32,000 bases of DNA, taken from Thermoproteaceae archaeon. GTDB taxonomy: Archaea; Thermoproteota; Thermoprotei; Thermoproteales; Thermoproteaceae. Position numbers and translations under genes: made by a program. The notes beneath the pieces are model-generated. The model was not told the origin of the DNA. It worked only from the letters and a program-made list of their open reading frames with translations, and made no database searches. Where the stretch lies: positions 78,980 to 110,979 of the forward strand of contig WANN01000012.1 in assembly GCA_015521775.1 (NCBI GenBank). Direction: 5' to 3'. Positions within the stretch are counted from its first letter, which is position 1, and the number at the start of each line of letters is the position of its first letter. Below are positions 3,926-9,485 of this stretch, piece after piece.

Positions 3926-4597
3926 TCACGCAGTAGCCACCTCGTACCACTTAAGCCCGTCGACGCGCGCAATTATGCTCGACGCCAAAGCGTAGAACGT
4001 CTCGAGCCTGAGGGGCTTCTTCAGCTTTATGGTGAGCCTCCTCCTGCCGTGACGGGCCACCACGAACACCCTGTATCTGTCCTCCACGGTCCTCAAGCCT
4101 ATGACCACTACGCGTTCGGACCCGCCTATCCTGCTTATGATTCTGCGCCCCACCTCGTAGTCCCTTATGTACCTCCTCTTTATGCCGACCCTGTGCATGA
4201 GTATGTGGCCCCGGGGCAGCGGCACGTGGGGCCTGCGTCCCCTATAGCCTATGATAGTTATCCTCGTGGGCCTGGACATGTGCGACACGGCCGACATTAT
4301 GGAGGCGTAGTCCACTAGCCCCAGGATTTCAGAGATGGAGCCGACCGTCCTCTGCGCGTCCTCTATATGCACTATAATCCTACTACAGAGGGACAGCTCT
4401 TCCGCTACCAGGTCCTTGAACCTGCCCAGGAGGTCCTCCATGGAGGTGACGGGTATCTGGAGGAGCTGACCCCTGTCGTTCTCCACCTCTATGCCGGGCC
4501 CCCCAACCCTTATGTTCCTGTGCTGTACCCCGGAGGGGCTGTACCTCACTATGTCGATTTCCAGGTACTCAAGGGACATAAATACGCTGCATTCCAT
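3926..4597 (-). CDS. Hypothetical basic protein (223 aa), last gene of the Arcade operon
   Basis: The start of ORF 3926..4615 is TTG. ATG at 4597 (MECSVFMSLEYLEIDIV...) sits about 27 nt downstream of a ccttaaataatg box that overlaps the stop of the upstream gene. Codon usage looks coding. The C-terminal half is Arg-rich (GYRGRRPHVPLPRGH..GIKRRYIRD..ARHGRRRLTIKLKK). I recognise no family. Confidence 0.7.
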   Translation of the reverse strand: MECSVFMSLEYLEIDIVRYSPSGVQHRNIRVGGPGIEVENDRGQLLQIPVTSMEDLLGRFKDLVAEELSLCSRIIVHIEDAQRTVGSISEILGLVDYASIMSAVSHMSRPTRITIIGYRGRRPHVPLPRGHILMHRVGIKRRYIRDYEVGRRIISRIGGSERVVVIGLRTVEDRYRVFVVARHGRRRLTIKLKKPLRLETFYALASSIIARVDGLKWYEVATA

Positions 4598-4623
4598 TAC
4601 ACCGAACGTGCTCAATGCATTAT

Positions 4624-7080
4624 TTAAGGATAACCCAACTTAGGCGGTTCTAAGCCTTCCCGTATTATCTGCACCACCCTCGAGGGCGCGGAACGTGCCG
4701 CTTGGTCCACCAACTCGCGCGACTGGGTAGCCAGCACGACCTGCGCCACTATGTCACTCTCCAAGAGCCTCCGCAGGACCTCGACGAAGGTGCGCCTAAC
4801 CTTTTCGTCTACGTACGGTATCGGCTCGTCCATAAATAGGAACGCCACGTTGTGGCGGGCCGACTTGTATATGGCCAGGACAAGGGCTAGGGCTAGGGTC
4901 AGCCTCTGGCCGTCGCTCAACTTGGATATGGGGAGGCGCGCGGCGCCGCTGGAGAACGCGTACAGCTGGTAGTACACGGTGTCGTTGCGGGGCTCGGCCT
5001 CAAGGTATGCGCCCCTCAAATCGCCATAGGGGTAAAGCTGCGCGAACATGGAGTCCACGTGGTCCCTCAACACATCCACCACCCTGCGCCTCGCGTTGCC
5101 CTGCGCGGCCCTGAGGGCCCTTTGTATCCTCAAAAGCGCTGCGTGTAGGGCCTCGAGGCGCGCGGCCCTGTTCACTACGGCCCCTAGGTCCTCGTCGCCT
5201 ATATGTACAAGCACCGACATTATGGCCTCCCTCTCGGCCATTAGGGCCCTGAGGGCGTTTGTCTGCGCCTCCAACTTGCCGTCGATGCGGGACAGGTCCT
5301 CTTCTATCCTTGCCAGAACGCCCGGCGATGCCCCCACGTTTTCCAGCCTTTCCTCGTGCTCCCTCAGCTCCTCCTCAAGCTCCGAGATCCTCTGCCTGAC
5401 CCTGTAGGCCTCATAGGCCGCCTCGAGCTCCCCGAGCTCCCTTTCCGCCTGTTCCACCCATGTCCTTAACCTCCTAAGCTTACGCTCCAACTCCATGGCC
5501 GACCTCTCCGCCGTAGACAGCCTCCTCTTCAGCTCCGCGAGGGACCTCAGCTTCTCCTCTAGGACCTCGCGGTACCCTAGATACTCGCTTACGGCCGGCA
5601 TGACGCGCTCCAGCTCCCCCAATTCGTTCCTGGCCTCCTCCAGCATGCCCCTCTTCGACCTCAGCTCGTCGTCCAGCCGCATGTACGTGTCCACCAGCTC
5701 GTCGAAGCGTCTCCTCACGGACTCAGGGTCTACGCTGTTGCCGCATATGGGGCAGGCCTCGCCATGCGTCTCCACAAGGTGCCTAGCCACGACGTACAGA
5801 GACCTGGAAAGGAGCGTGCGGGACTCCAGCTCCGCCACTTCGCTGGACAGCCTCTCCACGGCGTCCTTAAGCCTAGATACGTCGCCCCACTTGCCCAGTA
5901 TCCTTCTGTAGGCCTCGTAGATGTGGGACATAGAGGAAACCTTGCTCTCGAGGGCGGCGACCTCCCTGCCGAGCGCCTCCAACTCGCCCGCCATCTCCAC
6001 ACGCCTCTCCCTTATGTCCTCAAGCTGCGCCTCCAATCTAGGCAGCACCGCTCCCTTTATGTCCCTTACAATCTTGTAAACTATGTCCAGGGTACTATCC
6101 ATGTGCTCGGGTTGGGCCAGCCGCAGCTCGTCCAGGGCTTTGCTGTCCAGGAACAGCCTCACCTCCTCAGCCACCTCGAGGACCTTGGCTCTAAGGGACT
6201 CTAGGCGAAGCGCCAGGTGTTCCAGCGTAGGAGCGGGGTGCCCCCCAAGCCTGTCCAGCCTGTCCCTGAGCTCGTCGTACTCCAACCTGGCACGGACGTA
6301 CTTTTCGTATGTTTCGGGGCTAGCCCTAATGGAGGCGACGGCCCTGGCCTTCTCCTCTAGGAGGCGCCTCCTCTCCGCCTCAAACGACTCGATGGACCTA
6401 CGTATACGTGACATCTCCCCCTCTATCTCTGCCAGGCGCCTCCTCATCCCGTCTATTCCGCCATACCGTTCAATCACGTCCCTACGGGCCTCTATGGCGG
6501 CAAGCCTATCCCTTTCACGCTGCAGCTTCTCAGTTATCGCGTCTATGGGCAAGCTCTTGAGGAGGCCCTCCACCGCGTCAATGCCGAACAGTCTGTCTAT
6601 CGCCAACGTGCGCCTTTGCCGGGGGCCGTGGAGGAGGGCCTCGAGGGAGCGGTGGGACACGTATATGGCCCTCTCGTAAAGGTCGTCGTCGATGCCCAGC
6701 AGCTCCTCGACGGCGGCTCTGAGCTCCCTCTCAGACCTTATGGCCCTCCCGTCCAAAGCCCCTTCTACCCTCTCGGCGCCGTTGCTTCTCAGTATCCGCC
6801 TAATGAGGAGCGTGGACCCATCCCCATTCGCCAGTTCCACCTCCACCACCGCGAGGTCCCTCCCCTCGGATATGAGGTCGGCGAGCCTCGCGACCCTTTC
6901 CTTGGTCTCCATGACCGAGCCGAAGAGCGCGTATTCTATGGCGTAGAAAATGCTCGTCTTGCCCGCGCCTATGCGCCCGTGCAGCAGCGTCATGCCTTGG
7001 CCAAACTCAAGCTCGTGTCTGCCCCTGTACGCCCTGAAGTTCTCCATGGCTACCCGCCTTATGGTCCACCTGGCCTTCAT
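4624..7080 (-). CDS. rkd-4: SMC/Rad50-like coiled-coil ATPase (arcadin-4-like)
   Basis: Walker A is GRIGAGKTS at residues 35-43. About 600 aa of Glu/Arg/Leu-rich coiled coil follow, with CPICG at residues 443-447. The signature motif is LSDGQR and Walker B is FLFMDEP near the C-terminus. The gene is co-oriented with and close to crenactin, and no Mre11/HerA/NurA lies nearby. Confidence 0.85.
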   Translation of the reverse strand: MKARWTIRRVAMENFRAYRGRHELEFGQGMTLLHGRIGAGKTSIFYAIEYALFGSVMETKERVARLADLISEGRDLAVVEVELANGDGSTLLIRRILRSNGAERVEGALDGRAIRSERELRAAVEELLGIDDDLYERAIYVSHRSLEALLHGPRQRRTLAIDRLFGIDAVEGLLKSLPIDAITEKLQRERDRLAAIEARRDVIERYGGIDGMRRRLAEIEGEMSRIRRSIESFEAERRRLLEEKARAVASIRASPETYEKYVRARLEYDELRDRLDRLGGHPAPTLEHLALRLESLRAKVLEVAEEVRLFLDSKALDELRLAQPEHMDSTLDIVYKIVRDIKGAVLPRLEAQLEDIRERRVEMAGELEALGREVAALESKVSSMSHIYEAYRRILGKWGDVSRLKDAVERLSSEVAELESRTLLSRSLYVVARHLVETHGEACPICGNSVDPESVRRRFDELVDTYMRLDDELRSKRGMLEEARNELGELERVMPAVSEYLGYREVLEEKLRSLAELKRRLSTAERSAMELERKLRRLRTWVEQAERELGELEAAYEAYRVRQRISELEEELREHEERLENVGASPGVLARIEEDLSRIDGKLEAQTNALRALMAEREAIMSVLVHIGDEDLGAVVNRAARLEALHAALLRIQRALRAAQGNARRRVVDVLRDHVDSMFAQLYPYGDLRGAYLEAEPRNDTVYYQLYAFSSGAARLPISKLSDGQRLTLALALVLAIYKSARHNVAFLFMDEPIPYVDEKVRRTFVEVLRRLLESDIVAQVVLATQSRELVDQAARSAPSRVVQIIREGLEPPKLGYP

Positions 7081-9159: not shown

Positions 9160-9203
9160 GACAGTCAAACGGGAGGATCCGATAAAAACATTGGCCTGTA
9201 CGC

Positions 9204-9485
9204 CTAGGTCCTGACGCCCCTCACAATGACCACCTCAGACCCCCCGTTAAGTATCACCCATGTTGCCCCCGACATCTCCCTGACCGTGCTGCCGGGAAGC
9301 GAGGACAGGAACCTCACCAACTGTTCCGCCTCGCCCTCGACGTATAGGCCGTACGCGTACCTGTGGCCGTTATCTATCTCCACTACATGGACGCCTTGCA
9401 GGGAATCCTTCACGCATTTGAGGAACTCCCGGAGATGCTTGGACTCATGCGATGAGAGCTCGCAGCCCCCTTGTACTGAGCTCAT
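9204..9485 (-). CDS. Small protein upstream of crenactin (93 aa; arcadin-1 candidate by position)
   Basis: ATG start with a T-rich box (ggttttttgtag on the minus strand) about 25-30 nt upstream. Codon usage looks coding. Its stop is 35 nt from the track start of crenactin (9168; 44 nt from the re-called ATG at 9159). The assignment to arcadin-1 is positional only. Confidence 0.6.

Follow-up and report, generated by a model that had tools for sequence, protein, structure and literature searches.

A likely crenactin (Arcade) cytoskeleton locus of variant architecture, with two associated conserved genes, in an uncultured Thermoproteales lineage

A stretch of 32,000 nucleotides (nt) from a Thermoproteaceae archaeon genome assembly (GenBank accession number GCA_015521775.1, contig WANN01000012.1; positions 78,980 to 110,979 of the forward strand), here called the window, was analysed, and the region containing six minus-strand open reading frames (ORFs) packed at 3926–9485 was judged with good confidence to be a crenactin (Arcade) cytoskeleton locus. 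It belongs to an uncultured hot-spring archaeon of a Thermoproteales lineage and has a variant architecture that includes two associated conserved genes, called p93 and p223. The Arcade cluster of Pyrobaculum calidifontis, consisting of crenactin and arcadin-1 to -4, is said to have been described by Ettema and colleagues in 2011. Four of the six genes in the run were assigned as canonical Arcade genes, namely crenactin, arcadin-2, arcadin-3 and the Rad50-like arcadin-4. The original prediction, made from the sequence alone, had placed six packed genes here, and all six ORFs were found at the coordinates first given:

9204–9485, minus strand, p93 ORF, 93 amino acids (aa)
7855–9159, minus strand, crenactin ORF, 434 aa from the ATG (the longest ORF begins at a TTG at 9168)
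7220–7828, minus strand, arcadin-2 ORF, 202 aa, GTG start
7077–7223, minus strand, arcadin-3 ORF, 48 aa (47 aa counted from the second ATG)
4624–7080, minus strand, arcadin-4 ORF, 818 aa
3926–4597, minus strand, p223 ORF, 223 aa from the ATG, isoelectric point (pI) 10.1 (longest ORF 229 aa, beginning at a TTG at 4615)

The gaps within the run are 44, 26, -4, -4 and 8 nt, the last becoming 26 nt when the ATG start of p223 is used, and independent gene callers had produced the same models of 93, 434, 202 and 48 aa on identical public contigs. The ratio of non-synonymous to synonymous substitution rates (dN/dS) was calculated against locus L001, a relative with a 94% identical crenactin, and was 0.05–0.18 for each of the six genes (dS 0.28–0.62), indicating that all six are real coding genes, including the two smallest as well as p93 and p223. 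The values were 0.09 for the 93-aa gene and 0.056, as low as that of crenactin, for the 229-aa form of the p223 ORF, and by this measure strong purifying selection acts on both. Scanning the window for Rfam families and tRNAs gave no matches.

The product of 7855–9159 matched the NCBIfam crenactin equivalog at 671.6 bits (cut-off 630), the next family being MamK at 43 bits, and also matched Pfam Actin. It aligned over residues 8–434 with the P. calidifontis crenactin structures PDB 4CJ7, 5LY3 and 5MW1 (E=1e-181, 608 bits; 4CJ7 the best), and database protein P0003 is 100% identical to it. This product is identified from these matches as crenactin, an archaeal actin, as had been proposed, and the possibility that it would align better to MreB, ParM or Hsp70, put forward as a means of refuting the proposal, did not materialise.

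The 202-aa product, which had been called arcadin-2-like, indeed matched NCBIfam Rkd2 over model positions 1–195 of 196 (E=4e-28, 98 bits; equivalog cut-off 290), and is 29–31% identical to the orthologues found at the same position in Pyrobaculum and Thermoproteus tenax. Its N-terminal core is followed by a P/E/Q-rich linker, which leads to a conserved C-terminal peptide, GVPQFIKENQWVKVLRSRKR, and its C-terminus, ...PQFIKENQWVKVLRSRKR, fits the motif DNEW[VI].[IV]LR / NPW..[IV]L of 60 or more orthologues. In P. calidifontis, the C-terminal peptide of arcadin-2 binds a hydrophobic groove of crenactin and depolymerises the filaments (Izore et al. 2016, PMC5173319).

Whether the 47-aa or the 223-aa product corresponds to arcadin-3 had been left undecided, and the match to NCBIfam Rkd3 (E=2e-11, 43.7 bits; cut-off 90) together with the position now identifies the 47/48-aa ORF, and not the 223-aa one, as arcadin-3. 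The protein is acidic (pI 4.6), its gene shares 4-nt ATGA overlaps with both arcadin-2 and arcadin-4, and it is 41% and 57% identical to the ORFs at the same position in T. tenax and Vulcanisaeta moutnovskia, respectively, by tblastn. The 818-aa product, correctly described as an SMC/Rad50-like ATPase, is arcadin-4, as it matched NCBIfam Rkd4 over 747/747 model positions (E=2e-180, 601 bits; cut-off 860), whereas the best Rad50 model reached 161 bits against its cut-off of 1000. It also matched Pfam AAA_23 and SMC_N, its closest PDB structures are Rad50 head domains, and its motifs are Walker A (residue 35), a zinc-hook-like CPIC (443), the signature LSDGQ (~726) and Walker B (FLFMDE, ~752). 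Genes for arcadin-2, -3 and -4 follow crenactin in the same order in a Pyrobaculum metagenome-assembled genome (MAG), T. tenax, V. moutnovskia and about 40 metagenomic loci. Filament formation and the helical or mid-cell localisation of Arcade components are known only for P. calidifontis.

The remaining published member was found outside the coordinates of the run:

9990–10316, plus strand, arcadin-1, 108 aa counted from the ATG (a TTG at 9966 begins the longest ORF)

The product matched Pfam Arcadin_1 (PF18653; E=1e-37, 129 bits) and PDB 5LY5 (E=1e-38), is 55% identical to T. tenax arcadin-1, and was called as a 108-aa Arcadin_1 gene on the identical contigs. On these matches it is the true arcadin-1. 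The gene is on the strand opposite to the crenactin run, past a gene for the chromatin protein Alba, ~830 nt upstream of crenactin and ~500 nt from p93. The cluster, first described as complete with six genes, is therefore complete only when extended to 10316, and of the five published members the six-gene run holds four. The rpo6/rpoK gene and arcadin-1 converge, with 3' ends that overlap by 15 nt (10302–10316), and this arrangement was also found in Vulcanisaeta-type loci and in L061. The loci with convergent arcadin-1 and rpo6 are the window, L091, L092, L006, L015–17 and L061, and as the arrangement is kept even in L061, where crenactin is only ~44% identical, the adjacency may be older than the Pyrobaculum arrangement.

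The p93 and p223 families were searched for using iterated hidden Markov models and all six-frame ORFs of 91 loci collected around diverse crenactins. The p93 family has 13 members (window, L001, L004, L005, L006, L011–L017 and L043), the L006 member being VMUT_2040 of V. moutnovskia, annotated as 'hypothetical', and all 13 are directly upstream of crenactin and on the crenactin strand. The 3' end of p93 reaches at most 11 nt past the crenactin start or stops at most 44 nt short of it, except in L004, where the distance is 920 nt, and translational coupling or overlap of the two genes is seen in L005 and in Vulcanisaeta-type loci. The L004 interval (L004:1101–2020; about 900 bp, 56% GC), which separates the p93 homologue from crenactin where the window has a gap of 44 nt, includes a single called ORF of 58 aa and has no match in the other collected loci. 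No sub-threshold p93-family matches were found elsewhere in the collected loci.

In the family alignment, C8, R19, C24, D38-N39-G40, Y48, E50 and E84 are invariant, and the moderately confident AlphaFold2 (AF2) model of p93 (predicted local distance difference test score, pLDDT, 73) has the predicted topology alpha-beta-beta-alpha-beta-beta-beta. No match to p93 was found in Pfam, NCBIfam, PHROG or PDB, a word-indexed homology search recovered only the L001 orthologue, and a Foldseek comparison of the model with PDB found nothing at E<=0.001. The top Foldseek matches were beta-alpha-beta-beta-beta modules of glyoxalase-type proteins and of nucleotidyltransferases, with template modelling (TM) scores of 0.38–0.5.

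As the 93-aa protein had implicitly been counted as the fifth known member of the cluster, its relationship to arcadin-1 was considered and rejected. Pfam Arcadin_1 had no match at E<=1 in any of 8 family members, PDB 5LY5 gave no match, the family-versus-family hhalign probability was 0.3%, and BLASTP gave E values of 0.17 and 24 with the arcadin-1 of T. tenax and Pyrobaculum, respectively. Three other candidates were also rejected. A relationship to prefoldin alpha had a marginal lead (prefoldin-5; E=0.0085, 19.7 bits) without a match to Pfam Prefoldin, and this lead reflects a generic alpha/beta pattern, because the designed proteins Top7 and Foldit1 score alike. For Roadblock/LC7 the hhalign probability was 0.3%, and for a profilin-like fold there was no significant sequence, profile or fold match.

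Where arcadin-1 is directly upstream of crenactin, as in Pyrobaculum- and Thermoproteus-type loci, no p93 gene was found within 10 kb, and where p93 occupies the upstream slot, arcadin-1 is found instead on the other strand beside rpo6 or, in L005, downstream of crenactin. Loci with p93 are on both sides of the deepest Thermoproteales split in a rough neighbour-joining crenactin tree and, for this reason, the arrangement with p93 upstream looks ancestral and that of Pyrobaculum derived. The p93 family is an undescribed one and is considered a strong candidate for a crenactin partner.

Other genes were seen directly upstream of crenactin outside the Thermoproteales. In loci where crenactin is ~45% identical, ORFs of two families, 'upA' (~202–242 aa) or 'upB' (~175 aa), end at crenactin (L049, L050, L056 at 9264–9992, L058, L059, L063, L064, L074 and L075; a second set in L072, L073, L080, L084 and L090 at 9456–9992), and most overlap the crenactin start by 4–19 nt. 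Comparison using hhalign found no relation of upA and upB to p93, to arcadin-1 or to each other. It seems that the slot upstream of crenactin recruits different small proteins in different lineages.

A homologue of p223 with 24% identity over 220 aa (E=3e-11, pairwise BLASTP) is encoded in T. tenax by TTX_0756, which is likewise placed between arcadin-4 and the divergently oriented pair of trmB and radical-SAM (rSAM) genes. The family includes 9 ORFs in the collected loci, of which 7 are directly downstream of arcadin-4 (the window, L001, T. tenax, L021, L042, L044 and L046, the last four being Thermoproteus-like). An exhaustive phmmer search of 1.84 billion representatives with p223 found 2 matches only, the L001 orthologue and P0123 (E=5e-10), and a word-indexed search recovered only the former. 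No relative of the family was found in Pfam, PDB or PHROG. Family members have a pI of 9–10.2 throughout and about 22 invariant positions including two cysteines. The AF2 model of p223, built from a 2-sequence alignment, had a pLDDT of 51 and was too poor for use, and the Foldseek leads to LolB, Pur-alpha and XLF (TM about 0.15 on this model) were rejected as meaningless. A test for internal repeats was negative.

The conserved region of the family begins M-x-(x)-C (M-E-C in the window protein), and an A/T-rich box is found 20–34 nt upstream of the corresponding ATG in the window, L001, T. tenax, L042 and L009. Because of this conserved start and the box upstream of it, the true p223 product is probably the 223-aa form, leaderless and separately promoted; Thermoproteales mRNAs are mostly leaderless. 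P0123, the one family member seen apart from arcadin-4, is encoded on short Logan contigs (L009:76–2498 and L010). Its gene has on one side that of a serine recombinase (IS607-like transposase; PHROG E=2e-39) and on the other that of a BlaI/Penicillinase_R-type repressor, which hints that the family is able to sit in a mobile or regulatory context. p223 represents an undescribed family and is a weaker candidate partner than p93.

Promoter-like boxes were defined as A/T-rich 8-mers (at least 7 of 8 bases) at -38 to -22. TATA-like boxes had been predicted before crenactin, arcadin-2 and the 223-aa gene, and were found there, 22–31 nt upstream of the starts, and further boxes precede p93, arcadin-1, Alba, rpo6 and the thermosome gene. 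Those relevant to the cluster are:

9958–9967, plus strand, TATA-like box AAAGATATTT, A/T-rich, 23–32 nt upstream of the arcadin-1 ATG, putative promoter
9508–9516, minus strand, T-rich box TTTTTTGTA, 23–31 nt upstream of the 93-aa gene
9182–9189, minus strand, TATA-like box GTTTTTAT, 23–30 nt upstream of the crenactin ATG, putative promoter
7848–7857, minus strand, TATA-like box TAAATATTAA, 20–29 nt upstream of the arcadin-2 GTG, includes the crenactin stop codon
4619–4627, minus strand, TATA-like box TTAAATAAT, 22–30 nt upstream of the ATG at 4597, includes the arcadin-4 stop codon

The box TAAATATTAA may be the promoter of a unit of arcadin-2, -3 and -4, TTAAATAAT would be the 223-aa gene's own promoter, and TTTTTTGTA could be a promoter, an oligo-T terminator for Alba, or both. 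No A/T-rich 8-mer was found at -38 to -22 before arcadin-3 or arcadin-4, and such an 8-mer occurs in 11% of random 17-position intervals of the window. The pattern of boxes together with the ATGA overlaps indicates that there are probably at least four transcription units, namely p93, crenactin, arcadin-2/-3/-4 and p223, plus the divergent arcadin-1. The single operon named in the heading of the original prediction is thus unlikely.

In the orientation of crenactin (> for genes on its strand, < for the other strand), the gene order in the window is rpo6> arcadin-1< alba> p93> crenactin> arcadin-2> arcadin-3> arcadin-4> p223> trmB< rSAM>. The same order was found in L001 (94% crenactin identity) and L004 (87%), and the synteny of the flanking small genes, suggested as a test, is conserved in related loci. 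Both p93 and p223 were seen only in the window and its closest relative, L001; L004 includes p93 and its contig ends inside arcadin-4. The crenactins of this lineage are 87–94% identical within the group and at most 67% identical to any other, and among named genomes the nearest is an unclassified MAG labelled 'Thermoproteales archaeon'.

Three further architectures, Pyrobaculum-type, Thermoproteus-type and Vulcanisaeta-type, were recorded in the table of 91 loci. A fourth arrangement of the same parts, p93> crenactin> arcadin-1>, was found in L005 (L005:7038–9017; crenactin 67% identical), where the 1.6 kb of sequence downstream includes no arcadin-2, -3 or -4. In the Thermocladium-type loci L007, L038, L041 and L057 (crenactin 55–56% identical), arcadin-2, -3 and -4 also do not follow crenactin, hence the Arcade core is not contiguous in all Thermoproteales, and in L007 a hydrophobic 107-aa ORF is upstream of crenactin. 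Genes for Arf/Ras-like GTPases were found a few kb upstream of crenactin in Vulcanisaeta (L006:7778–8840) and Thermocladium (L007:6239–6742 and 9172–9531), with a Roadblock/LC7 gene also present in Thermocladium. This resembles an MglA/MglB-like pair near an actin gene, and the window includes no such genes. The cluster had been described as restricted to Thermoproteales and Korarchaeota, which is outdated, as pairs of crenactin and arcadin-2 are abundant in other TACK-type contigs.

Three other explanations of the gene run were considered. It would be very surprising if the 818-aa ATPase were an ordinary Rad50/SMC repair or chromosome protein that is next to an actin-fold gene by chance, with small genes that are not cytoskeletal. 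Although the closest general or solved matches are with SMC_N, AAA_23, the Rad50 families and Rad50 head structures, and the protein carries a CxxC hook-like motif, its score with Rkd4 far exceeds that with Rad50, and the neighbouring genes encode arcadin-3 and p223, which have no nuclease or phosphoesterase domain, with no Mre11-like gene adjacent. Furthermore, the order crenactin, arcadin-2, -3, -4 is conserved in about 40 Thermoproteales-type loci and also in L061/L062. It is also very unlikely that p93 is a fast-evolving paralogue or structural analogue of arcadin-1 in the position of that gene, in which case the six-gene run would be complete after all. Such a relationship would fit the location of p93 in the exact slot held by arcadin-1 in Pyrobaculum and Thermoproteus, and the similar sizes (93–120 aa in the p93 family, 108–113 aa for arcadin-1). 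However, no similarity was found by Pfam, PDB, BLASTP or hhalign, arcadin-1 is not in the top 50 Foldseek PDB matches of the p93 model, and a well-conserved true arcadin-1 is found about 500 nt away in the same genome.

Rather unlikely, too, is the explanation that p93, p223 or both are bystanders, p223 being perhaps a lineage-specific DNA-binding protein, a regulator or what is left of a mobile element. Among the conserved neighbours are also housekeeping genes (Alba, rpo6, thermosome, TrmB and radical SAM) that are not components, and for p223 the promoter-like box of its own, its absence from Pyrobaculum- and Vulcanisaeta-type loci, and the resolvase/IS607-like transposase and BlaI-type repressor genes adjoining its relative P0123 would be in keeping with this. 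Against it, p93 is directly upstream of crenactin in 13/13 cases, often overlapping it or within 7 nt, where the crenactins are 59–67% identical, and the place of p223 after arcadin-4 is retained in two lineages, with p223 proteins that are only 24% identical, and p223 evolves as slowly as crenactin.

Several points nevertheless weigh against the preferred reading of the region as an Arcade locus with two associated genes. The scores of arcadin-2, -3 and -4 are all below the NCBIfam equivalog cut-offs, so that their orthology rests on synteny and best hits, though such scores are expected for a lineage distant from the Pyrobaculum seeds. The link of p93 and of p223 to crenactin is one of adjacency only, the p223 family is not beside arcadin-4 in Pyrobaculum- and Vulcanisaeta-type loci, and P0123 (222 aa; L009 and L010) is on contigs of 2.0–2.5 kb that carry no crenactin. 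The absence of p93 from Pyrobaculum- and Thermoproteus-type loci applies to the 10 kb around crenactin, and the neighbour-joining crenactin tree has no support values. The promoter calls are a reading of the sequence, and with its own promoter-like box p223 need not be co-regulated with the cluster.

Taking the region as an Arcade locus, the full-length match to the P. calidifontis orthologue suggests that the crenactin would polymerise with ATP into actin-like double-helical filaments, as P. calidifontis crenactin does (Izore et al. 2016, PMC5173319). The C-terminal peptide of arcadin-2 (QFIKENQWVKVL here) would occupy the crenactin groove, as shown in Pyrobaculum, sequestering monomers and depolymerising filaments. 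Arcadin-3 and the zinc-hook-bearing arcadin-4, translationally coupled to arcadin-2 via the ATGA overlaps, would probably form one expression unit with it, and the two proteins probably make up a coiled-coil ATPase complex that associates with the filaments. Arcadin-1, which binds crenactin weakly, would be supplied from a gene apart from the others on the other strand. Given its strict adjacency across lineages with crenactins only 59–67% identical, p93, a small predicted alpha/beta protein in which a DNG hairpin motif and two invariant cysteines are found, most likely associates directly with crenactin. For p223, with a weaker link to the system, a role as a nucleic-acid-binding accessory of arcadin-4 is possible. 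These roles are proposals drawn from adjacency, conservation and composition only. A more specific scheme, which is possible but doubtful, is that the actin system has p93 as its sixth and p223 as its seventh component, with p93 an ancestral, dedicated crenactin-binding factor (for example a nucleator, capper or chaperone), whose slot was later taken by arcadin-1 in the Pyrobaculum/Thermoproteus branch, and p223 a basic adaptor tethering arcadin-4, and hence the filaments, to DNA. If this were true, archaea that have neither FtsZ nor ESCRT-III would possess an apparatus, based on actin, for chromosome handling or division.

Cell shaping and division in Thermoproteales, which take place without canonical FtsZ or ESCRT-III, are still an open question. 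Recent reviews describe the cluster as five genes and the roles of arcadin-1, -3 and -4 as unclear, and the published descriptions of the Arcade cluster in the literature searched mention no sixth gene, nor were the locus tags TTX_0756 and VMUT_2040 found there. The suggestion that at least one product of the run may be undescribed therefore stands, but with two such products, p93 and p223, rather than one. These are two conserved protein families without a published description and new candidate partners of archaeal actin, one small family fixed 5' of crenactin in several deep lineages and one basic family found after arcadin-4 in two others, and the published five-gene picture, drawn from Pyrobaculum, falls short of the whole conserved neighbourhood. 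Both families lend themselves to inexpensive study with the existing crenactin assays (surface plasmon resonance, light scattering and cryo-electron microscopy). The organisms that carry VMUT_2040 and TTX_0756 are in culture and have been sequenced. For annotation, a gene of ~100 codons just upstream of crenactin is not necessarily arcadin-1.

The genes flanking the cluster in the window are:

10302–10634, minus strand, rpo6/rpoK, 3' end overlapping the 3' end of arcadin-1
9526–9807, minus strand, Alba chromatin protein gene (Pfam Alba, E=2e-17), between arcadin-1 and p93
about 3025–3774, plus strand, TrmB-family regulator gene
1270–3021, minus strand, gene for a radical-SAM protein with an HMPTM-type zinc ribbon

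Alba, also adjacent in T. tenax-type and Vulcanisaeta-type loci, is a conserved neighbour and is not claimed as a component. The TrmB and radical-SAM genes are divergent and nearly touching, and the same pair follows the Arcade genes in Pyrobaculum- and Thermoproteus-type loci. The 496-aa ORF listed at 2284–3774 is mostly antisense read-through of the radical-SAM gene. Elsewhere in the window, three candidate ORFs of 173–258 aa with no Pfam match at E<=0.001 (12464–13018, plus strand; 15829–16605, minus strand; 18984–19505, plus strand) were found among genes for EF-2, PfpI, DUF373, Trm1, Nop5, fibrillarin, GatD/E, TruD and OTCase.

The locus shares all five protein families with the P. calidifontis Arcade cluster (Izore et al. 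2016, PMC5173319), as well as the order crenactin>arcadin-2>arcadin-3>arcadin-4, the overlapping arcadin-3/-4 genes and the C-terminal peptide of arcadin-2, and the trmB< rSAM> neighbours downstream are as in Pyrobaculum-type loci. Unlike in P. calidifontis, arcadin-1 is inverted and separated from crenactin by Alba and p93, and the core is flanked by the extra conserved genes p93 and p223. Identity with a Pyrobaculum sp. MAG is about 62% for crenactin and about 29–34% for arcadins 2–4.

The upstream half of the locus is found in V. moutnovskia (thermosome> rpo6> arcadin-1< ... alba, p93-family> crenactin> arcadin-2/3/4), where, however, a 165-aa ORF and an Arf-like GTPase gene are between arcadin-1 and Alba, Alba is on the other strand, and there is no p223-family gene and no trmB/rSAM pair downstream. 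The downstream half is found in T. tenax (arcadin-4> p223-family (TTX_0756)> trmB< rSAM>), which also has Alba upstream, but in which arcadin-1 and not a p93-family gene is directly upstream of crenactin, and TTX_0756 is 120 nt from arcadin-4.

Arcadin-4 resembles the Rad50/SMC ATPases in that the Walker A and the signature and Walker B motifs are separated by a long coiled coil that has a CxxC hook-like motif at its centre, but differs from Rad50 in having no Mre11 partner gene, in its far higher score with Rkd4 and in its setting in an actin gene cluster. Arcadin-2 has been compared with the groove-binding sequestering peptides of thymosin beta-4 and cofilin, with which it shares an amphipathic C-terminal peptide after a disordered linker, as shown for the P. 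calidifontis protein, the motif being kept here. In sequence, arcadin-2 is not similar to these eukaryotic groove binders, and the resemblance is considered convergent (Izore et al. 2016, PMC5173319).

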